From: Candidatus Zixiibacteriota bacterium
Lineage (GTDB): Bacteria > Zixibacteria > MSB-5A5 > RBG-16-43-9
Direction: 5' to 3'
DNA length: 64,000 bases
Assembly (NCBI GenBank): GCA_030692925.1
Contig: JAUYBY010000023.1
Span: forward strand, 22,612-86,611
Part shown: positions 2,449 through 59,956 of the stretch, piece by piece
How positions within the stretch are numbered: the stretch's first letter is position 1
Layout of the letters: the number at the start of each line of letters is the position of its first letter
The notes under the pieces: generated by a model
Database searches by the model: none
What the model saw: the letters and a program-made list of their open reading frames with translations, nothing else
What the model was told of the DNA's origin: nothing
Made by a program: the position numbers and the translations under genes

Positions 2449-2503
2449 TGTGGTTGCCCAATTTATTGGGCTTATTTTAAGCTCGATAAATCGAGCAACT
2501 ACA
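2449..2503. repeat. REP-like palindromic doublet (TGTGGTTG-CCCAATttATTGGG ... GCTCGATaaATCGAGC-AACTACA)
   Basis: Same unit family as at 15412-15466, 15653-15706, 25805-25945 and 26385-26520; conserved GTAG/CTAC ends. Confidence 0.7.
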
Positions 2504-2655
2504 GGCAGCCTCCAATTTCACGGGCTTCCAAAAAATGCAAAGGAAAAGTCGGGCAGGGTGCCTGACCTATGAAGAGTCATTATTTCACATCAGAGATACT
2601 ATTTGGAGCTATGGGGAACTGACACCTCGTCCTCACAGGAGTGAGGACGCTACAA

Positions 2656-4258: not shown

Positions 4259-4897
4259 ATGCGAAAAATCTCGGAATCCACAATCCACAGGCTGTCGCTT
4301 TATTACCGCACTCTGGTTAGTCTACAGAGAGAAAGGTATATCACCGTTTCCTCCAGAGAGCTGGCTAAAAGGGATAAGCTCACCCCAGCCCAGGTGAGGA
4401 AAGACCTCTCCTTTTTCGGGAGCTTTGGCACAAGGGGATTAGGATACCCGGTGAACGAGCTTAAAGATAAGATCGCCTCTATTCTGGGATTGAACCGGAC
4501 CTGGAATGTGGCTCTGGTGGGGGTGGGAAACGTGGGTTCAGCTTTGGTCTCCTACAAGGAATTTCCCAGGCAGGGGTTTGTCATAAAGAAAATATTCGAC
4601 AACGACCAGAGGAAAATCGGAAAAAACCACAAGGGGATCCTGGTCTCAGACGTAAGGAATCTGGCTAAAGAACTGAAGGAGGACAGAATTGAGATCGTGG
4701 TCCTGGCTGTTCCGGCTTCTGCCGCCCAGAGCGTGGTGGATGAGGTAGTATCAGCCGGAGTTCATACTATTCTTAACTTCGCTCCGACCAACCTCAAGGT
4801 CCCGGACAACGTAGTTCTGCGCACGGTCAATATGGCAATGGAGTTAGAGCATCTCTCCTTTGCCCTTTCCAACCGGGGGAAAATAAAAGAGCTATAA
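4259..4897 (+). CDS. rex: Redox-sensing transcriptional repressor Rex
   Basis: N-terminal winged-helix region (TIHRLSLYYRTL...) and a CoA-binding/Rossmann domain (ALVGVGNVGSAL...). Start placed at the internal Met because ORF-track start 4085 overlaps the gene's own promoter and operator. Confidence 0.85.
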   Translation: MRKISESTIHRLSLYYRTLVSLQRERYITVSSRELAKRDKLTPAQVRKDLSFFGSFGTRGLGYPVNELKDKIASILGLNRTWNVALVGVGNVGSALVSYKEFPRQGFVIKKIFDNDQRKIGKNHKGILVSDVRNLAKELKEDRIEIVVLAVPASAAQSVVDEVVSAGVHTILNFAPTNLKVPDNVVLRTVNMAMELEHLSFALSNRGKIKEL

Positions 4898-6121
4898 CTT
4901 CTTTATCCCCGGTATCAAAAACCCGGTTAATCCACCCAGGGCAACTAAAACTCCACTTAAGAATACAATCATCTGGACGTGTAAAAGCCCTCCCATAACT
5001 CCTACCAAAGCTAAAGAGATCGGTCTTAAGCCTCCGCTAATTGTTCCAAGAGTGCCGAAGACCCGGCCTTGTTTCTCGTGTGGTATTTTGGACTGAAACA
5101 CGACCGGGACTAAGATGTTGGCAAAGGAGAACCCAAACCCGCACCCGCCCAGAAGAAAGATCGAGGTCCAGAAGGATTCCGAGACCCCGAACAGGGCTAA
5201 AAAGGACCCAGCTACAACTATTCCTATCATTATAAAGGTTCCTTTTCTTCTAACTCCGCCAATCATCCCGAGGAAAAGGCTGCCCAGAACCATTCCTACA
5301 GAGATGCTTGAGCCAAGCACCCCGAATCCCTCTGCTCCCATCTTCAATATCTTCTTAACCATCAACGGGATTAAAACCCCTACCGGAGCCACGAAGAAAT
5401 TCAGCACGGAGAATAAAACCACAAGCCCCAGTATCCCTGACTCTTTACGGATGAAATTCAGACCATCCATAAGCTCCTGCAGGAATCTTTTTCTTTCCTC
5501 TGAAGGAAAAACCTGCTCAACTTTGACTCTCACCAGGAATATGGCGATAACCGAGACGAAAAAGCTTAAAGCGTCCAAAATCATTACTGTTCCAGTTCCA
5601 AATAAGGCTACCAGTGCTCCCCCTAAAGCGGGCCCGATAATCCCGCTCAAGTTACTGCTCATCTGAGAGATCGAATTAGCCCGGACTAACTGCTCCTTAT
5701 TTACTATCACCGGTAGGAATGAGGCTAAGGCGGGGTTAAAGAAGGTTGACATAGATGAAAGGAAGGCTGCGATTACAAATATGTGCCAGACCTGAAGTTG
5801 ATTCAAAAAGTAAAGCACTCCAGGTACAGTGATCAGCACCCCACGCCCCAGGTCCATCAGGATCAAAAGCCTCCTTTTATCCACCCGGTCAACGTATGTT
5901 CCAGCAAAAGGTCCCAGGATGATGGCAGGCAGGGAAGAGCAGATAGCCACAGTAGCCATAGCGGCAGTGGAGCCGGTTTTTTCCAGGACCCACCACATCA
6001 GGGCTATTATATACAAGAAATCGCCGACCACTGAGATAGTCTGGCCTATCCAGATTGAAAAGAAATTCAGATTCCGAAAAATCGAACCATAGCCCCGGTT
6101 TTTTTCCTGCAAACTTTCCAT
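4892..6121 (-). CDS. MFS transporter (EntS/macrolide-efflux-like)
   Basis: About 12 predicted TM helices, G-rich MFS motifs, 409 aa. Confidence 0.75.
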   Translation of the reverse strand: MESLQEKNRGYGSIFRNLNFFSIWIGQTISVVGDFLYIIALMWWVLEKTGSTAAMATVAICSSLPAIILGPFAGTYVDRVDKRRLLILMDLGRGVLITVPGVLYFLNQLQVWHIFVIAAFLSSMSTFFNPALASFLPVIVNKEQLVRANSISQMSSNLSGIIGPALGGALVALFGTGTVMILDALSFFVSVIAIFLVRVKVEQVFPSEERKRFLQELMDGLNFIRKESGILGLVVLFSVLNFFVAPVGVLIPLMVKKILKMGAEGFGVLGSSISVGMVLGSLFLGMIGGVRRKGTFIMIGIVVAGSFLALFGVSESFWTSIFLLGGCGFGFSFANILVPVVFQSKIPHEKQGRVFGTLGTISGGLRPISLALVGVMGGLLHVQMIVFLSGVLVALGGLTGFLIPGIKKL

Positions 6122-15403: not shown

Positions 15404-15710
15404 TGGTAAGTTGTAGTTGCCCAATTTATTGGGCATGTTTTTAGCTCGATAAATCGAGCAACTACATCTGAGGCAATGTAAAGTGGAACAGACATCTTGT
15501 CTGTTCTTTGAAGTCAGATAGGGATGTCGGCCCATCATTAGGGGAGGGTCGTCCTCACGGGAGTGAGGACGCTATAGCTTTGAAGTCTGCCAGATGGGTT
15601 CGGGAATTCCAATTCCCGAACCAACCTCAAAAATCACAAACGGATGGTAAGTTGTAGTTGCCCAATTTATTGGGCATGTTTTTAGCTCGATAAATCGAGC
15701 AACTACCCGT
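15404..15710. repeat. Composite (BIME-like) REP cluster: two 75-bp direct copies of the TGTAGTTG-CCCAAT../GCTCGATAAATCGAGC-AACTACA doublet flanking three other hairpins
   Basis: Doublets at 15412-15466 and 15653-15706; hairpins GTCGTCCTCACgggaGTGAGGACGC and GTTCGGGAATTccAATTCCCGAAC lie between them. Confidence 0.75.
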
Positions 15711-24807: not shown

Positions 24808-25803
24808 TCAATTCAGGTTAAGTTTCTTCTTAACCAGCTCCACTGTGTTCTGGTCTTCTGCCTGTTCTAACCTTTTTAAAGCCTCATCTCTTTCGAGATA
24901 ACCTTCCCTTACCAGTTTGGCTAACTCGAAGGCATAGGGATGGAAACCGAACCTTTGCTTATGCACCAAATTAGCAAACGAGTTCAAAAGGCAGTTAGTC
25001 GAGTTCGAGTCGGTATCAACTGGCATATTCCAGCCGAGCTTTTCGATCTTTTTGAATATTTTCTTCTCATCGTATTCCAGAAAAGCTAAAGGGCTGATAT
25101 TATAAGGAAAATCCTCTTTTTGCTCGAAATGTTTCTCCTCTAAAAAATAAGGATTGATCTTTTCACCGGCGATCCTGAAAAGCGGCTCTTTGATGGCATT
25201 CTGCATCCCCTTCAGCATTGAGGGGTTGTTCTTGAAAATGGAGGCGGATATCGGTGCCTGACCCGGTGACCAGCCATAGGTTATAAAAGGTATCTTCTTT
25301 TCTAAAGCCAGTCGCAAAGTGGTGGATTTGACAATCCCCATACAGGAAGTGCAGATGGTGCTTGCCCGGTCTAAGGTTTTGCGGGAGAAGATATCTTCTT
25401 GGGTGCCGGTCAAAAATATTTTCTTTAAAAGGGTGAAATCCGGCTTGAAAAATATATGGTCTACTCCTAAATTTTCCACAACTTGACGGATATTCTTAAA
25501 AGCCTGTTCTGATAAAAAACCGTTGTCAAAGGTCAAAGCTAAGATTTTAAGGTCATATTCTTCTTTCAAGAGACTGAGGGCATAAGTGCTGTCTTTTCCC
25601 CCGGAATAAGCCATCAAAGCATCGTAGGAACTGGAGTTTTTGAATCTATCCAGAAGCTCCTGGAACTTCTGCAGGTATTTTACCTTCTCCTTTTCCAGAT
25701 ATTCTTTTCCCTTGAACTCCTGGCAGAAATTACACACCCCTTTTGAATCAAAACTTATGCCAGGAAAGGTCTCTGGTAGCACGCAGTTGGTACAGATTTT
25801 CAT
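24808..25803 (-). CDS. N-acetyl sugar amidotransferase (PP-loop ATPase of LPS/O-antigen clusters, WbuX-like)
   Basis: N-terminal CxxC...CxxC ribbon, SGGKDS PP-loop; 331 aa. Confidence 0.7.
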   Translation of the reverse strand: MKICTNCVLPETFPGISFDSKGVCNFCQEFKGKEYLEKEKVKYLQKFQELLDRFKNSSSYDALMAYSGGKDSTYALSLLKEEYDLKILALTFDNGFLSEQAFKNIRQVVENLGVDHIFFKPDFTLLKKIFLTGTQEDIFSRKTLDRASTICTSCMGIVKSTTLRLALEKKIPFITYGWSPGQAPISASIFKNNPSMLKGMQNAIKEPLFRIAGEKINPYFLEEKHFEQKEDFPYNISPLAFLEYDEKKIFKKIEKLGWNMPVDTDSNSTNCLLNSFANLVHKQRFGFHPYAFELAKLVREGYLERDEALKRLEQAEDQNTVELVKKKLNLN

Positions 25804-25804
25804 A

Positions 25805-26520
25805 GGTGTTTTTCAGTAGTCGCCCAATTCATTGAGCTTTTTTTATGCCTGATAAATCAGGCAACTACATACTCGATAGATCGAGCAACTACAGTTACAT
25901 ATTGTAGTTGCCCAATTCATTGGGCAATATTTTCTTCCAAACAATCCATAGACTATGATTCATAAAACTGACTGAATTTTATCTTCTCTTTCAACGGATT
26001 ATTTATAATATATTCCCTGATTTTAAGCAACGCTTTCTCGTTTCGAATTACATGTTCATAATAATTAGGTTGCCATAATCTTATTCCGGCTTCTTTACTG
26101 GTCAAAGACTTGAATCTTCTTACTATCTCGCCTAAACCGAGTTTAGATTCCTGCAATATAATAATCATATGTATATGTAAAGGTAATATAGAATAATAAT
26201 CAATATTAATGCCCTCGATTCCTTTTAACTCGTCTAAGGCAGTGCGAATTTCCCTGCTGAACTCTTCTAAATAAGGGCGTTGATAACTTGAACAAATGGT
26301 AACAAAATAGTAACCGTTTTGAGAGTAATCATAATGTTTTAATCTTATATTTTTTATCGACCTCATGATTTAACCCTTGCGGTATCCTACTTGTTGTGCT
26401 TTTTGCTCGATGAATCGAGCAACTACAGTCACATATTGTAGTTGCCCAATTCATTGGGCATCTTTTATACCTGATAAATCAGGCAACTACAGGCTCGATG
26501 AATCGAGCAACTACAATTCC
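25805..26520. mobile_element. RAYT (REP-associated tyrosine transposase) locus: IS200/IS605-like Y1 transposase gene flanked on both sides by REP arrays
   Basis: REP units on both flanks share CAACTACA-gtYacatat-TGTAGTTG inverted heads: left flank 25821-25926, right flank 26405-26515. Confidence 0.75.
25953..26366 (-). CDS. tnpA: IS200/IS605-family Y1 (HuH) transposase, RAYT type
   Basis: HuH motif LHIHMII and the C-terminal LWQPNYYEHVIRNE motif (catalytic Tyr); 137 aa. Confidence 0.8.
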   Translation of the reverse strand: MRSIKNIRLKHYDYSQNGYYFVTICSSYQRPYLEEFSREIRTALDELKGIEGINIDYYSILPLHIHMIIILQESKLGLGEIVRRFKSLTSKEAGIRLWQPNYYEHVIRNEKALLKIREYIINNPLKEKIKFSQFYES

Positions 26521-27486
26521 TCAGAGGAGATTCGGAGCGTTCTGGTTCAGATGAATCGAGGCTTTCCTTTTCTGGTCAAAATCCCGATAGGCTCTTATTA
26601 TCTGTTCCTCTGAAAGGTTTAATACCTGACTTACCTTTGAAAGAGGGATTTTGTTCTCCTGAGCATACAAGAGTAAGTCCAACAGGTCATAAGGCATACA
26701 GAAGAAAAACTCCTGATCTGATACTACTGCAGAGAAGGTGTCCGGGCTGGGAACTCGCTTGATTATCTCCTCCGGGATGTCCAGAAATTTAGCTAGCTGG
26801 TATACCTGAGTCTTATAAAGATGAGCAATCGGCTCCAGATCAACTCCTCCATCCCCAAATTTCACGTAAAAACCCTGAGCATATTCACTTAAATTAGTGG
26901 TGCCGATGACCATATAGTTATATTTTTCAGCATAATAATAAAGCTGGATCATCCGGCTTCTCTGTTTCATATCCGTTGCTGCCACAATCCCCAAAAGCCC
27001 TTCTTTGGAAAGGCGAAAACTTTTCTCCTCTCCTTTGGGACTGATCATCTTCAAGCTGAAATAATTAATCCGGTCCCTTTCTAATAAGTCCTGGGGAAGC
27101 CCAATTTTTATTTTATAGGAACTGTCATAAGCGGGGGAAATCTTTTTAATTACCTCGTCTCTCTTTTTATAACATCCCAGACTTTCCATGGCTTGGGTCA
27201 GGTCGACTTTTTCGGTTCTTATGCCCAGTTTCTTAGCTAAAAGCTCTCCATAGGTTAAGCTTATCGGATTCGATTCTTTTTCCGGCAAAAAGACACCTAA
27301 AACCTTATCCTTGCCCAAAGCCCTGACCGATAAAGCAGCAGTTAGAGCTGAGTCTATGCCTCCGCTTATTCCCACCACCGCACCCTCTCTTCTGAAATGC
27401 GTAAAAACCTGTTCTTTTATGAATTCACAAATCCTTTCGCATTCTTTCTCAGAATTTATATCCAGGATATTTTTGTGAAAGTCCAT
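26521..27486 (-). CDS. nadE: NH3-dependent NAD+ synthetase NadE
   Basis: PP-loop GISGGIDSAL, and VIGTTNLSEYAQGFYVKFGDGGVDLEPIAHLYKTQVYQLAKFL matches the NadE core. Confidence 0.75.
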   Translation of the reverse strand: MDFHKNILDINSEKECERICEFIKEQVFTHFRREGAVVGISGGIDSALTAALSVRALGKDKVLGVFLPEKESNPISLTYGELLAKKLGIRTEKVDLTQAMESLGCYKKRDEVIKKISPAYDSSYKIKIGLPQDLLERDRINYFSLKMISPKGEEKSFRLSKEGLLGIVAATDMKQRSRMIQLYYYAEKYNYMVIGTTNLSEYAQGFYVKFGDGGVDLEPIAHLYKTQVYQLAKFLDIPEEIIKRVPSPDTFSAVVSDQEFFFCMPYDLLDLLLYAQENKIPLSKVSQVLNLSEEQIIRAYRDFDQKRKASIHLNQNAPNLL

Positions 27487-27497
27487 TTTCTTCTCTC

Positions 27498-29066
27498 CTA
27501 TCCTACGGATCCGTTTTTCTCGGATTTTAAACCGACTTTTCTTATTTTCCCTGATTCGGTCTTGGGCAGGGTCTCAACTAATTCCAGGTATTTGGGTACC
27601 ATAAAGTCCTCTAAATTTTTTTGACAATACCTCAGAATGTCATTTTCCGAAAGGATTATTCCTTCTTTCAAAACCACAAAGGCTTTGATCGCTTGTCCTA
27701 AAATCTCATCTGGCACTCCCACGACTGCTGCTTCTAATACGCCTTCAAGATTATATAAAACATTCTCGATTTCCTTGGGGCTTACCTTTTCTCCCCGGCA
27801 TTTTATTATGTCATCTTTTCTTCCTACGAAATACAAAAATCCTTCTTCATCCATCCTGAATAAATCTCCAGTATATAAAACCCTTTCCCAAGGCAGGGGA
27901 CCCGGTTTTAAAACCTTGGCGGTTTCCTCTGGGAGTTCCCAGTAACCAAGCATCACGTTTGAGCCCCGGACAACAAGCTCCCCAACTTCTCCGGGTGAAA
28001 CTCTTTGTCCATCCTCATTAACTATATAAACTTCCTCATTTGGCATACCCTTTCCGATTGAGTTAGGCCTTCTGTCAAGCTCTTCTGGAGGAAGAAAGGA
28101 CACCCTTTTGCATTCGGTCAAACCGTACATTGAATACAATTTTGCTTTTGGAAAGGTCTCCCTGATTTTCTTTATGAAGGCAACAGGTAAAGCTGCAGCG
28201 GTGTTGGTGATATATCTTAAGGAATCGAAATTCTGTTTTTTCAAGTCTTCTAATTGAAGCAATATGGCGAAAATGGTGGGGACTCCTGGAAATCCGGTTA
28301 CCTTTTCCTTTAGCATCAGATCAACAATCACATAAGGATATAAGAAACTTTTTTCCAAAATTACTCTTCCGCCTATTTTGAAACCCATTAGAATTTGATA
28401 AAGCCCATAGTCAAAAGATAAAGGTAAGACGTTGAGGATGACATCATCACTGGTATTCTCCAGATATTGAGTAATAGAGTTTGACGCGGAGACCATATTC
28501 AGATGAGATAGCATCACCCCTTTGGGGTTTCCGGTCGTGCCGGATGTATAGATTATGCTTGCCAGGTCCAGATCGATATTTTTGTTCCGAAGTGGATTGT
28601 CAGGATAGGAGCCTAAAACCTTGTCAAAGTAAGAGACCCTTTTGTCAGGGAAGAACATTTTTACTTCAGATTCCTGCTTGCCTGCAAGTATGACAGACTT
28701 GACTGAGGGCGCTTTCTGCAAAACCTCCTGGATGAGATCCAGTTTATCAGAACCGGTGATTAAAGCTTTGACCCGGCAGTTATTTAAGATATAGGCAAGC
28801 TTATCTTTCTTAGTGGTCGGGTTGATAACCACGAAAACCGCATTTGCTTTTAAAATTCCGAAAATGGATAAAACCGCCTCGACTGAGTTCTCCAAGAAAA
28901 TCGCAACCCGGTCGCCCCTTTCCACTCCAGAATCTTTTAGGCCACTGGCTAACCTATTGGCAGAGCTATTGATCTGCTGATAGGTCAGCCTTTCGCCCTG
29001 ACAGACTAAGGCGATCTTGTCAGGAAATTTTTCAGCACTTTTTTCAAGGAAATGATTTAAAAGCAT
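27498..29066 (-). CDS. AMP-dependent synthetase/ligase (acyl- or aminoacyl-AMP ligase)
   Basis: YTSGTTGNPKGVMLSH (A3), TGD (A8) and GRxDD motifs. Confidence 0.85.
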   Translation of the reverse strand: MLLNHFLEKSAEKFPDKIALVCQGERLTYQQINSSANRLASGLKDSGVERGDRVAIFLENSVEAVLSIFGILKANAVFVVINPTTKKDKLAYILNNCRVKALITGSDKLDLIQEVLQKAPSVKSVILAGKQESEVKMFFPDKRVSYFDKVLGSYPDNPLRNKNIDLDLASIIYTSGTTGNPKGVMLSHLNMVSASNSITQYLENTSDDVILNVLPLSFDYGLYQILMGFKIGGRVILEKSFLYPYVIVDLMLKEKVTGFPGVPTIFAILLQLEDLKKQNFDSLRYITNTAAALPVAFIKKIRETFPKAKLYSMYGLTECKRVSFLPPEELDRRPNSIGKGMPNEEVYIVNEDGQRVSPGEVGELVVRGSNVMLGYWELPEETAKVLKPGPLPWERVLYTGDLFRMDEEGFLYFVGRKDDIIKCRGEKVSPKEIENVLYNLEGVLEAAVVGVPDEILGQAIKAFVVLKEGIILSENDILRYCQKNLEDFMVPKYLELVETLPKTESGKIRKVGLKSEKNGSVG

Positions 29067-29096: not shown

Positions 29097-29342
29097 TTAT
29101 CCCTGCTTTCTCTGGATATAGGTTATCAGATTCTGTATGGAATCCAGATTCTCCGGGACAAGCTCCTCATCCTCCACCTTGATCTTGTAGGTCTCCTCGA
29201 TGAAATTGACCAGCTCTAAAACCCCGGTGGAATCTATTATCCCGTTCTGCAGAAACGACTCGTCTTCTTTTATAGCCCGGTTCTTGTCCCCCAGGAGGAA
29301 GTTGTTCTGGATAAAAGTCCTAAGTTTTTCCTCCATAACCAT
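29097..29342 (-). CDS. Acyl carrier protein
   Basis: 81 aa with DSTGVLELV phosphopantetheine-attachment serine; sits directly upstream of the ligase. Confidence 0.75.
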   Translation of the reverse strand: MVMEEKLRTFIQNNFLLGDKNRAIKEDESFLQNGIIDSTGVLELVNFIEETYKIKVEDEELVPENLDSIQNLITYIQRKQG

Positions 29343-30575: not shown

Positions 30576-30666
30576 CCTAAATTTCTCTTGACTTGGCCCT
30601 TAAATTATTACTAAATATAATTCCTGAATGTAGTTGCAACAGGGCGTCCAATTGGACACCCCTACG
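30576..30666 (+). repeat. 91-bp direct repeat, copy 1 (promoter-like TTGACT..TAAATA plus REPIN-like GTAG-palindrome-CTAC)
   Basis: About 92% identical to 31698-31788. The central palindrome GGCGTCCAATTGGACACC is inverted relative to copy 2. Confidence 0.8.
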
Positions 30667-30763
30667 TGGACTGGACAAATCGTCATTCTGTTACCTCCTG
30701 ACACCAACATTAGAAACCTCGTGTATTACCCTCAAACAAGTTTGTGGGTGCCACCTTGCCGCA

Positions 30764-31495
30764 TCATTTCTTCACGGCGACAATGACAGTATCGCTTCCA
30801 CATAAAACCTCTTTGGAGAGATACATCTTGAAAATATTCAGGTAATGCTTTTCATCTGGTTTTCCCTGATACAGTTTCCTGTAGGTCAAAAGATAACGCA
30901 GAAAAATATAAGGATAGATAAAAGGATAAAGAATTAAACTGCCTGTGCGCAGGCGGTAGGTGGTAAGGGTCTGGATCTCGAAACCAGCAAATCTGAGAAA
31001 TGTTTCCAGGCGGTGAAAAGGGATTAGGTTAATGTGTTCCATATAGATATTGGGCAAATCCTCTCTTAACGGGCGCGGGGGGTTATCGTAAACTCCGGTT
31101 AGAAAATATAAAAAACGGCTTTCCAAAGAGGAGATATTCGGGGTGGTCAGAAAAAGTCTGCCGCCCTTTTTTAAAATCCTGAAACATTCCCGAAAGAATA
31201 AAAATTGATTCTCGATATGTTCTATTCCTTCGATGGATACGATGTAATCAAAACTCTCAGGCCCGAAGGAAAGTTCTTTGGACATATCTAACTTCTGATA
31301 AGAGACCTCGGGGAAAAGATGAAGAGATTCGTCGATTTCAGCGGCAATCGTTTCAAAGCCAGATTCTTTTGCCTGTAGGGCAAAATATCCGGGACCTGAG
31401 GGGATATCTAACAAACGCCCGGGTGGATTTGGTTTTAACAGCTTCCAGATCAAATCGTGCAAGTAGGGGTTATGTTTTGGTGGAATTTCCTGCAT
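30764..31495 (-). CDS. Class I SAM-dependent methyltransferase
   Basis: Motif I LLDIPSGPGYFA and motif post-II ILKKGGRLFLTTPN. Confidence 0.8.
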   Translation of the reverse strand: MQEIPPKHNPYLHDLIWKLLKPNPPGRLLDIPSGPGYFALQAKESGFETIAAEIDESLHLFPEVSYQKLDMSKELSFGPESFDYIVSIEGIEHIENQFLFFRECFRILKKGGRLFLTTPNISSLESRFLYFLTGVYDNPPRPLREDLPNIYMEHINLIPFHRLETFLRFAGFEIQTLTTYRLRTGSLILYPFIYPYIFLRYLLTYRKLYQGKPDEKHYLNIFKMYLSKEVLCGSDTVIVAVKK

Positions 31496-31697: not shown

Positions 31698-31788
31698 CCT
31701 AAATTTCTCTTGACTTAGCCTTTAAATTATTGCTAAATATAATTCCTGAATATAGTTGCGACAGGGTGTCCAATTGGACGCCCCTACG
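31698..31788 (+). repeat. 91-bp direct repeat, copy 2, followed by two more REP units (31815-31868)
   Basis: See copy 1. The downstream units are GTTCGATgaATCGAAC-CCCTACG and TGTAGGGG-CTTGATttATCAAACC. Confidence 0.8.
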
Positions 31789-31886
31789 CGGGTTCTGAAT
31801 CTTAACCGGTCTGGGTTCGATGAATCGAACCCCTACGAATGAATGTAGGGGCTTGATTTATCAAACCCTGCAAAAGCGAAGGGATT

Positions 31887-53402: not shown

Positions 53403-53427
53403 GGGCTTGATAAATCAAGCCCCTACA
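53403..53427. repeat. Single REP unit GGGCTTGATAAATCAAGCCC-CTACA
   Basis: Same palindrome-plus-CTACA design as the other REPs. Confidence 0.6.
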
Positions 53428-59486: not shown

Positions 59487-59573
59487 AGGTTATCCTTTTG
59501 ATTGCTTTTTCTTCAGACCTGAAAGGAGTATCACGGATTCTACTCGGGAGATTAAAAATAACATTCAAAAAAC

Positions 59574-59956
59574 TGGAGGCGGTGGGAATCGAACCCACGT
59601 CCGAAGATAAGAACTAAAGGACTTCTACAGGCTTAGCTTAGTCTTTTTTCCTTCCCGCTTTTGGCAGGAGGGACTTTCGCTCCAGGAAAGACCGACAAGC
59701 AGGTCTAACCCAGAACTATCCCGGTTTTGTTTCGCCCTCTTCCCCCAGGAGATAGAAGAAGGCTATCCTGTTTTTCTCGACGCCTTAGCCCAAACCAACA
59801 GGCAGGCTCAGGTAAGACGAGCTACCTTTTATTAGGCAGCCAATGCATACGAGTATTCGTTTGCATTTAGATTTGTTCCCAATGGATTAACGAGGTTACT
59901 GGGTACCTCGGCCTGCTTTCCTTTACCCTTGATCCCCGTCGAAACCGATCGCCCCC
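59574..59956 (-). ncRNA. ssrA: tmRNA (ssrA), tag peptide (A)ANEYSYALAA
   Basis: 5' end GGGGGCGAUCGGUUUCGACGGGGAUCAAGGG and 3' end GGACGUGGGUUCGAUUCCCACCGCCUCCA (tRNA-Ala-like T-arm and acceptor). Tag ORF GCAAACGAAUACUCGUAUGCAUUGGCUGCCUAAUAA. CCA is not encoded. Confidence 0.9.

Follow-up and report, generated by a model that had tools for sequence, protein, structure and literature searches.

The stretch of DNA analysed here is a 64-kb window of contig JAUYBY010000023.1, from an uncultured Zixibacteria metagenome-assembled genome (MAG), and the counts of genes and repeats given below cover these 64 kb unless stated otherwise. The window contains a sugar-polymer (polysaccharide) operon in which a gene for a WbuX-like N-acetyl-sugar amidotransferase is separated by a 717-nt insert from a gene for an NAD synthase-like protein (nadE-like, PRK00876 subfamily). 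This insert consists of one open reading frame (ORF) for a REP-associated tyrosine transposase (RAYT), the only copy in the window, eight short palindromic units of the repetitive extragenic palindrome (REP) type and short spacers, and nothing else (Table 1). Because the two host genes otherwise sit 37-38 nt apart in relatives, the operon is split by the RAYT between its amidotransferase and nadE-side genes, as the first-pass annotation of this DNA had proposed, and the array has enlarged the intergenic spacer from 37-38 nt to 717 nt.

The 137-aa ORF contains LHIHMII (H64-I-H66) and the C-terminal block WQPNYYEHVIRNE, the two features from which a RAYT-type protein had been recognised at first pass, and profile searches agreed with that assignment. 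Pfam family PF01797 (Y1_Tnp), which had been suggested as a check, matched residues 17-122 at 29.7 bits (gathering cutoff 23), the top NCBIfam family was REP_Tyr_transpos (NF047646, REP-associated tyrosine transposase) at 71.5 bits, and the sole significant match in the Protein Data Bank (PDB) was the Escherichia coli TnpA_REP (4ER8, E = 1e-8). In the alignment with 4ER8, H64 and H66 correspond to the HUH histidines H59 and H61, Y119 to the catalytic Y115 and N123 to N119; the roles of the catalytic residues in the E. coli enzyme are given in PMC3479197. The catalytic Tyr is placed on helix alpha-D, with the Asn four residues later. W98, Q99 and R108 align with W94, Q95 and R104, which contact GTAG in the E. 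coli enzyme (PMC6006769). Across 34 aligned homologues H64, H66, Y119, N123, W98 and R108 were invariant and Q99 was present in at least 90%. The protein ends about 10 residues past helix alpha-D and therefore does not have the E. coli C-terminal extension that carries E161; its sequence places it in a clade of short (~137 aa) RAYTs without this extension.

More than 4,400 homologues were found, most of them near 137 aa and many already named 'RayT' by the Joint Genome Institute (JGI); the NCBI label for the protein itself is just 'transposase'. An identical protein and the nearest relatives are labelled Zixibacteria, in keeping with the candidate-phylum host that had been suspected. On one-genome-per-species contigs the homologues came from Zixibacteria, Ignavibacteria, Brocadiales/Planctomycetes, WOR-3, Stahlbacteria, Dehalococcoidia and other Chloroflexota, Poribacteria, Omnitrophota, Nitrospirae, several Patescibacteria, Elusimicrobia, Actinomycetota and Clostridia. 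None of 80 homologue loci shared synteny with the neighbour genes of the window. No relatives were found on viral contigs and the sole plasmid match was 33% identical, so nothing points to phages or plasmids as carriers of the family from phylum to phylum. A more distant member, protein P0104 (58% identical), was found as the exact protein in many samples and had the same genomic context in 10 of the 10 places shown. A RAYT paralogue at 71-74% identity (P0004/P0005), recovered on four contigs of separate samples (L090-L093), has an ABC permease gene on either side and shares the strand of both. In L090 it has complete direct-orientation doublets on both sides, and in L091 the downstream doublet is degenerate. 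It should also be noted that both flanking doublets of L090 have the same 12-nt spacer, and that flanking repeats are more alike within than between loci. In many homologues (L002-L005, L008, L012, L024, L025, L076, L090 and others) RAYT and REP overlap, the TAG stop codon forming part of the GTAG of the next REP downstream.

Each REP unit is 22-24 nt long and comprises a 7-8-bp stem, a 2-nt loop and the tail (G)CAACTACA. Units were assigned to the strand which reads 5'-GTAG-hairpin, and on this strand the order is 5'-GTAG, TT, GC-NNN-AT, TY, AT-NNN-GC (for example GTAGTT-GCTCGATTCATCGAGC, beside a CCCAAT variant). Three stem variants, CTCGAT, CCTGAT and CCCAAT, were found in this genome. Seven of the eight units in the insert are exact and one, R1 (25816), is degenerate, with CGACTAC and one stem mismatch. 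The palindromic arrays reported on both sides of the gene thus resolve into canonical GTAG REP units, and the shared junction CAACTACA-gtYacatat-TGTAGTTG was recovered in both flanks. The description of the arrays as mirror images was wrong: the two flanks repeat each other directly, with order and orientation unchanged. A stretch of 55 nt (25872-25926 and 26406-26460) is 95% identical between them and one of 81 nt (25816-25896 and 26438-26518) is 88% identical, and single units occur in both orientations within the flanks.

The innermost units form a doublet that contains the RAYT, in minus-strand order TGTAGTTG-CTCGAT hairpin, 37 nt, RAYT, 26 nt, CCCAAT hairpin-CAACTACA. The definition of canonical REPs in PMC6006769 requires inverted orientation, a stem that is fully paired over at least 7 bp, a loop of 2-5 nt and GT[AG]G at 0-2 nt on the 5' side of the stem. 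The units next to the RAYT have this form: GTAG-TT-hairpin lies upstream, 37 nt away, and hairpin-AA-CTAC lies downstream, 26 nt away.

REP doublets beyond the insert

Shuffling gave an expectation of 0.14 for the sequence GCAACTACA, which the window has 12 times; none of 100 shuffles reached 12. Three gene-free doublets of about 55 nt occupy two further intergenic regions of the window, so the palindromes are not confined to the insert; such confinement is what the first-pass annotation had named as counting against its own reading. On the strand of the neighbouring genes these doublets are laid out as TGTAGTTG-CTCGAT hairpin, 9-11-nt spacer, CCCAAT hairpin-CAACTACA, and all three therefore show the two inverted REPs with a short spacer by which REP doublets forming hairpins (REPINs) are recognised. 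As single-stranded DNA (ssDNA), doublet B is predicted to fold into two hairpins held together by a 6-bp outer stem of GTAGTT and AACTAC (-14.4 kcal/mol, z -7.0).

We examined covariation with a pattern which fixes the frame only (GC...AT..AT...GC RR CTAC) and does not require the stem to pair, avoiding circularity. This pattern gave 216 sites in the window and the 80 homologue loci, and was present in 47 of the 80 loci. The inner triplets were fully complementary in 201/216 sites (chance rate 1/64), in 10 different complementary combinations, and the loop was AA or GA in 213/216. By these counts conservation extends to the shape of the hairpin, its loop and its tail but not to the inner stem sequence. 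The same REP frame, its stems altered in a compensatory way, accompanies homologues from at least 14 phylum-level groups, which predicts that the protein reads shape, tail and loop.

REP density was 5.2/kb within 350 nt of RAYTs, 0.21/kb farther off and 0.03/kb in shuffled sequence. Scanning JGI metagenome contigs with the GTAG-side pattern gave at least 120 matching stretches. Among the 120 listed (765 kb) there were 212 REP units, many of them matching as inverted pairs, and just one RAYT of this family, so REPs far outnumber RAYT genes in these stretches; 118 of the 120 had no RAYT. The REP-richest listed stretch, L143 (Ga0207433_10017731, 4470-5103), has 9 pattern matches and a 48%-identical RAYT, the match to which spans 513 nt for 135 aa and suggests an insertion inside the gene. 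REPs inserted inside genes of subclass 2.4 have been described (PMC6006769).

A promoter scan of the insert gave no signal above chance. Among 34 homologue loci with at least 50% identity and neighbours within 600 nt, the upstream neighbour was co-directional with the RAYT in 34/34 and the downstream neighbour in 25/34. As no promoter of its own was detected and a co-directional host gene lies upstream, the RAYT probably owes its expression to transcripts that read through from the host operon, judging from consensus scans and gene orientation, and its constant placement downstream of a co-directional host gene suggests the same. No sense-strand terminator was found in the insert, nor any T-run terminator on that strand. 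REPs as intrinsic terminators of the operon were considered and rejected, as terminator-like matches were on the antisense strand only. An Rfam search over the whole window matched only a tmRNA gene, and the REPs are covered by no known RNA family.

Alleles of the site and origin of the RAYT-bearing unit

About 30 database proteins are 92-100% identical to the nadE-like protein, and we compared the same intergenic site in the contigs of seven of these and in one further contig taken via a 99% identical RAYT (P0002). In L088/L089 (nadE 85% nucleotide identity to the window) the site is 37 nt long, with a REP-like remnant without GTAG, and in L081/L082 (90%) it is 38 nt long, with one intact REP. 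A 153-154-nt allele, in which an outer CTCGAT...CCCAAT doublet encloses a doublet of another family, was found in L085, L214, L215, L216 and L087 (87-97%), and a 253-nt allele in L083/L084 (91%) holds a five-unit REP array and no gene. The RAYT-bearing allele was found in the window and in L086, whose nadE is 95% identical over the 435 nt on its contig. At least 8 related contigs, their nadE 85-97% identical in nucleotides, thus have no RAYT at the orthologous site, and among the related contigs recovered the unit that bears the RAYT is in the window lineage and one other haplotype only. One unit, R8, is common to most related alleles, being degenerate in L087 and corresponding to the GTAG-less remnant in L088/L089. 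The site is shortest in the most distant relatives, so that by parsimony, and not from a dated tree, the ancestral state is likely to have been without the RAYT. The contigs provide a natural allele series at one orthologous intergenic site, from decayed REP through one REP, doublet and array to array with RAYT.

The nested doublet in L085, L087 and L214-L216 belongs to a different GTAG family (GTAGCGCGACCCTTTTAGGGTCGC ... GCGAGGCTAAAAGCCTCGCACTAC), and REP doublets seem to nest in one another's spacers. No member of this nested family (GTAGCGCGACCC...) was found in the window. In the short alleles (L081, L088) a GAGGA Shine-Dalgarno-like motif lies 5-6 nt before the ATG of the WbuX-like gene; in the REP-rich alleles it is replaced by AAAAACACCT (window 25804-25815), and translation of the WbuX-like gene may be affected by its loss.

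The two RAYT-bearing haplotypes differ far less within the unit than around it. The core from hairpin to hairpin (25910-26420) has 3 mismatches in 511 nt (0.6%) between the window and L086, and the adjacent nadE has 21 in 435 (4.8%), with 18 synonymous codon differences; the core is about 8 times less diverged (Fisher p = 3e-5). The upstream REP array shows approximately 13 differences in 100 nt and the downstream side 9 mismatches in 55 nt, and the breaks in identity sit in the GTAG/CTAC tails at the feet of the hairpins. The 9-nt spacers beside the unit are alike within a haplotype and different between haplotypes (atatgtgac and atatgtaac in the window, atattcgga and atattcggc in L086). In a collection of 5.8 billion proteins no RAYT was found at 75-98% identity to that of the window, against some 30 proteins at 92-100% for nadE; close relatives therefore have no RAYT orthologue of intermediate divergence. 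There is good reason to conclude that the haplotypes had already diverged when the unit was introduced or exchanged, far later than the divergence of the flanking genes. Self-movement of the unit is weakly indicated, and these sequence data fit both RAYT-catalysed cutting at the hairpin feet and REP-mediated homologous recombination. The vertical inheritance at a stable position that marks domesticated RAYTs (Groups 2 and 3; Bertels et al. 2017) was not seen, and the term domesticated, applied to the transposase at first pass, finds no support at this locus, where the gene is present or absent among close relatives.

Taken together, we consider it very probable that the locus is a REPtron, a RAYT (TnpA_REP, class-2 Y1 HUH) accompanied by its cognate REPs, and that the unit reached this site recently. 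Most likely the protein acts as TnpA_REP does in E. coli: it would bind the hairpin and GTAG on ssDNA, would cleave and rejoin it by means of Y119 and an HUH-bound metal, and would in this way disperse REP doublets of about 55 nt into intergenic DNA. Several points weigh on the other side. The score of 71.5 bits falls short of the NF047646 equivalog cutoff of 80, and the enzyme function of the 137-aa protein is argued from sequence and analogy. The counts of REPs and RAYTs for the host cover 64 kb, from which hundreds of REPs per genome would be an extrapolation, and co-transcription is drawn from consensus scans and orientation. The two RAYT-bearing haplotypes are both at one site, with no movement to a new site seen, and L086 is a 1.1-kb metagenome contig.

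It is conceivable, though we would not favour it, that the RAYT is ancestral at this site and was lost in relatives by recombination between the 55-81-nt flanking direct repeats. The low divergence between haplotypes would then be due to ordinary homologous recombination between strains, ending in REP arrays, with no need for RAYT activity. Besides the direct repeats themselves, this explanation draws on the array of L083/L084, which equals L086 minus exactly one 534-nt period, as repeat-mediated deletion would give, on the mosaic structure of L086, in which nadE is like the window and L085 and the array like L083, and on the likeness of spacers within a haplotype, which fits gene conversion. 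However, both recombination end points would have to coincide with hairpin feet, simple deletion does not explain why the L085-type alleles hold another REP family in the gene's place, and the 37-38 nt with no or one REP in L088/L089 (85%) and L081 (90%) make absence the more parsimonious ancestral state.

We find it doubtful that the 525-bp unit (GTAG-hairpin, RAYT, hairpin-CTAC) amounts to a minimal transposon in its own right, autonomous, not domesticated and smaller than IS200. On this explanation the unit inserts itself into resident REP sites inside operons by RAYT-catalysed ssDNA cleavage and ligation at the hairpin feet, and the 55-nt doublets are internally deleted derivatives comparable to miniature inverted-repeat transposable elements (MITEs). 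The dispersed doublets do share both ends, in the same order, with the RAYT-carrying unit, and identity between the two RAYT haplotypes, 99.4% inside the unit, is 82-95% beyond the hairpin feet on either side. That at least 8 related contigs have no RAYT at this site points the same way, as do other Zixibacteria RAYT loci, which are not syntenic with the window locus, and the 71-74% paralogue in a different operon. Against this, both RAYT haplotypes are at one site and no second site for the unit was found, there is one copy in 64 kb, and a family member sampled on 24 contigs was always at one locus. The haplotype-specific matching 9-nt spacers also argue against it, given that Y1 'peel and paste' makes no target duplication, and the reversed proximal REPs of 16 homologue loci (hairpin-CTAC, gene, GTAG-hairpin) show that a doublet does not always enclose the gene. 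Were this explanation true, a REPtron of the widespread short-RAYT clade would move as a unit, against the current view of such systems as immobile or domesticated.

A role of the hairpin arrays in host regulation, as RNA stabilisers, terminators or protein-binding sites maintained to control the operon, with the RAYT a mere passenger, is unlikely. Stem covariation would also suit RNA structure, REPs and RAYTs lie downstream of co-directional genes here and in PMC3733652, and the array displaces the GAGGA Shine-Dalgarno upstream of the WbuX-like gene. No array is conserved, however, the site varying from 0-1 to 8 REPs in strains with flanking genes 85-97% identical; the sense strand has no T-run terminator; and the invariant GTAG tail and the conserved GTAG-contacting residues link the repeats to the protein. 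A regulatory role is in any case compatible with a recently arrived REPtron. Finally, an ordinary insertion sequence of the IS200/IS605 family (TnpA_IS200) in place of a RAYT would suit the Pfam Y1_Tnp match and the NCBI annotation as 'transposase', but is highly improbable given a score of only 24.5 bits to the IS200 equivalog (NF033573 transpos_IS200, cutoff 55) against 71.5 for the REP model, the alignment of the block WQPNYYEHVIRNE...YIINNP with E. coli TnpA_REP, the recurrence of the flanking GTAG REPs without a gene at three window sites and in 118/120 of the listed metagenome stretches, and the absence from the window of a TnpB gene and of a second transposase copy.

Other features of the window

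Table 1 Coordinates of the insert, its REP units and other features in the window.
Feature	Position	Strand	Remarks
Whole insert, 717 nt	25804..26520	-	between WbuX-like start codon (25803) and nadE-like stop codon (26521)
RAYT / TnpA_REP-type Y1 HUH gene, 137 aa	25953..26366	-	profile matches and 4ER8 alignment
RAYT-containing REP doublet, 525 nt	25903..26427	-	hairpin-to-hairpin core 25910-26420, 511 nt
REP R1, degenerate (GTAGTCGCCCAATTCATTGAGC)	25816..25837	+	ends 12 nt from WbuX-like ATG; common to L085-type alleles
REP R2, CCTGAT stem	25847..25869	-	doublet partner of R1
REP R3, CTCGAT stem, one mismatch	25871..25893	-	
REP R4, CCCAAT stem	25903..25926	+	3'-side end of RAYT-containing doublet; ssDNA fold -8.0 kcal/mol, z -3.9
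REP R5, CTCGAT stem	26405..26427	-	5'-side end of RAYT-containing doublet; -7.9 kcal/mol, z -4.3
REP R6, CCCAAT stem	26437..26460	+	
REP R7, CCTGAT stem	26469..26491	-	doublet partner of R6
REP R8, CTCGAT stem	26493..26515	-	5 nt past nadE-like stop codon
Head-to-head junction CAACTACA-gttacatat-TGTAGTTG	25886..25910		left flank
Head-to-head junction CAACTACA-gtcacatat-TGTAGTTG	26420..26444		right flank
Dispersed REP doublet A	2449..2503	-	intergenic; one head GTGG, other end CTAC; CTCGAT hairpin first on minus strand
Dispersed REP doublet B	15412..15466	-	intergenic
Dispersed REP doublet C	15653..15706	-	intergenic; 241 nt from doublet B
WbuX-like N-acetyl-sugar amidotransferase gene	24808..25803	-	downstream host gene
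NAD synthase-like (nadE-like) gene	26521..27486	-	upstream host gene
AMP-ligase gene	27498-29066	-	precedes nadE-like gene, same strand
Acyl carrier protein (ACP) gene	29097-29342	-	precedes nadE-like gene, same strand
Second REP-like family, unit 1	31812-31836	+	
Second REP-like family, unit 2	31845-31869	-	
Second REP-like family, unit 3	53404-53426	+	
Direct repeat of ~92 nt, copy 1	30576-30667		
Direct repeat of ~92 nt, copy 2	31698-31789		
Methyltransferase ORF	30764..31495	-	bracketed by the ~92-nt repeats
Third repeated palindrome, copy 1	2629-2653		
Third repeated palindrome, copy 2	~15548-15575		
tmRNA gene	59571-59956	-	Rfam RF00023, 201 bits

A second REP-like family, with one head-to-head pair, is also present in the window; its GTAG/CTAC directly abuts a GGG...CCC stem (GGGTTCGATGAATCGAACCCCTAC). 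Repeats of this type also flank a 213-aa, 35%-identical RAYT homologue in an Omnitrophica MAG (L063), and no cognate RAYT for the family was found in the window. A direct repeat of about 92 nt (~90% identity) contains a promoter-like TTGACTT...TATAAT, GAATrTAGTTGCrACA, the hairpin GGGyGTCCAATTGGACrCCC and then CTACG. Its two copies sit in the 2.5-kb stretch from the ACP gene to a 771-aa HlyD/M50-like gene, which is approximately 550 nt in L081. The copies of a third repeated palindrome, CGTCCTCACrGGAGTGAGGACGCTA(C/T), each lie about 80-130 nt from a REP doublet of the first family.

Comparison with known systems

The system itself is ordinary, RAYT/REP systems being well described. The locus resembles the REPtron of E. 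coli K-12 (4ER8, with bacterial interspersed mosaic elements (BIMEs) and REPs) in its Y1 HUH core, with the HUH, Tyr and Asn residues and the GTAG-contacting W, Q and R aligned, in the 5' GTAG at the foot of the hairpin, in the REPs which flank the gene in both orientations and in the occurrence of the same REPs in extragenic DNA. It differs in that the protein is about 29 aa shorter than E. coli TnpA_REP (137 vs 165 aa) and is without the GTAG-holding C-terminal extension (E161), that the REP is a short perfect hairpin without the bulge that the E. coli enzyme needs, and that the RAYT is polymorphic among close strains and not fixed.

As in the RAYT-REPIN systems of Pseudomonas fluorescens (Bertels & Rainey; PMC3116915, PMC5581495), REPs occur mainly as inverted doublets with a short spacer, and such doublets flank the RAYT and far outnumber RAYTs. 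The two hairpins of a window doublet have different stems, unlike those of Pseudomonas REPINs, and instead of the single long hairpin of a REPIN the doublet is predicted to fold three-way, closed by its GTAGTT/AACTAC tails. The vertical inheritance and fixed position of the Pseudomonas Groups 2 and 3 were not seen at the window locus.

Like IS200 and IS608, the locus has a small Y1 HUH transposase and subterminal hairpins of the kind recognised as ssDNA, and no terminal inverted repeats of the DDE type. IS200 is about 0.7 kb long, which the 525-bp unit would resemble in size. The ends of the unit are inverted copies of a dispersed REP, unlike the same-strand left-end (LE) and right-end (RE) hairpins of IS200/IS608, and there are no multiple identical copies (one in 64 kb; P0104 in a single context).

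By description, the protein is like subclasses 2.4 and 2.7 of the class 2 TnpA_Y1 (Quentin et al. 2018, PMC6006769), which have no C-terminal extension and canonical GT[AG]G REPs, and whose patchy distribution across many phyla has been taken as horizontal transfer. The distance from HUH to Tyr is 55 aa here, compared with a median of 88 in subclass 2.4. Unlike the 'species-specific' REPs of that survey, one frame recurs in 47/80 homologue loci from many phyla.

The repeats themselves are like the GTAG REP superfamily (Di Nocera et al. 2013, PMC3733652), having a short GTAG-tagged stem-loop, units which are often in pairs of opposite orientation, positions that are mostly 3' of genes and flanked by co-directional or convergent ORFs, and an association with RAYTs. 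Presence outside Proteobacteria is not new, as GTAG REPs and tnpA_REP-like genes are already reported from many phyla (PMC3733652, PMC6006769, PMC5581495). The survey of 24 GTAG families covered Proteobacteria, Cyanobacteria, Chloroflexi and the Planctomycetes-Verrucomicrobia-Chlamydiae (PVC) group, without Zixibacteria and most of the candidate phyla seen here (PMC3733652), and the present locus adds a Zixibacteria example and a short-RAYT clade which is very common in uncultured phyla.

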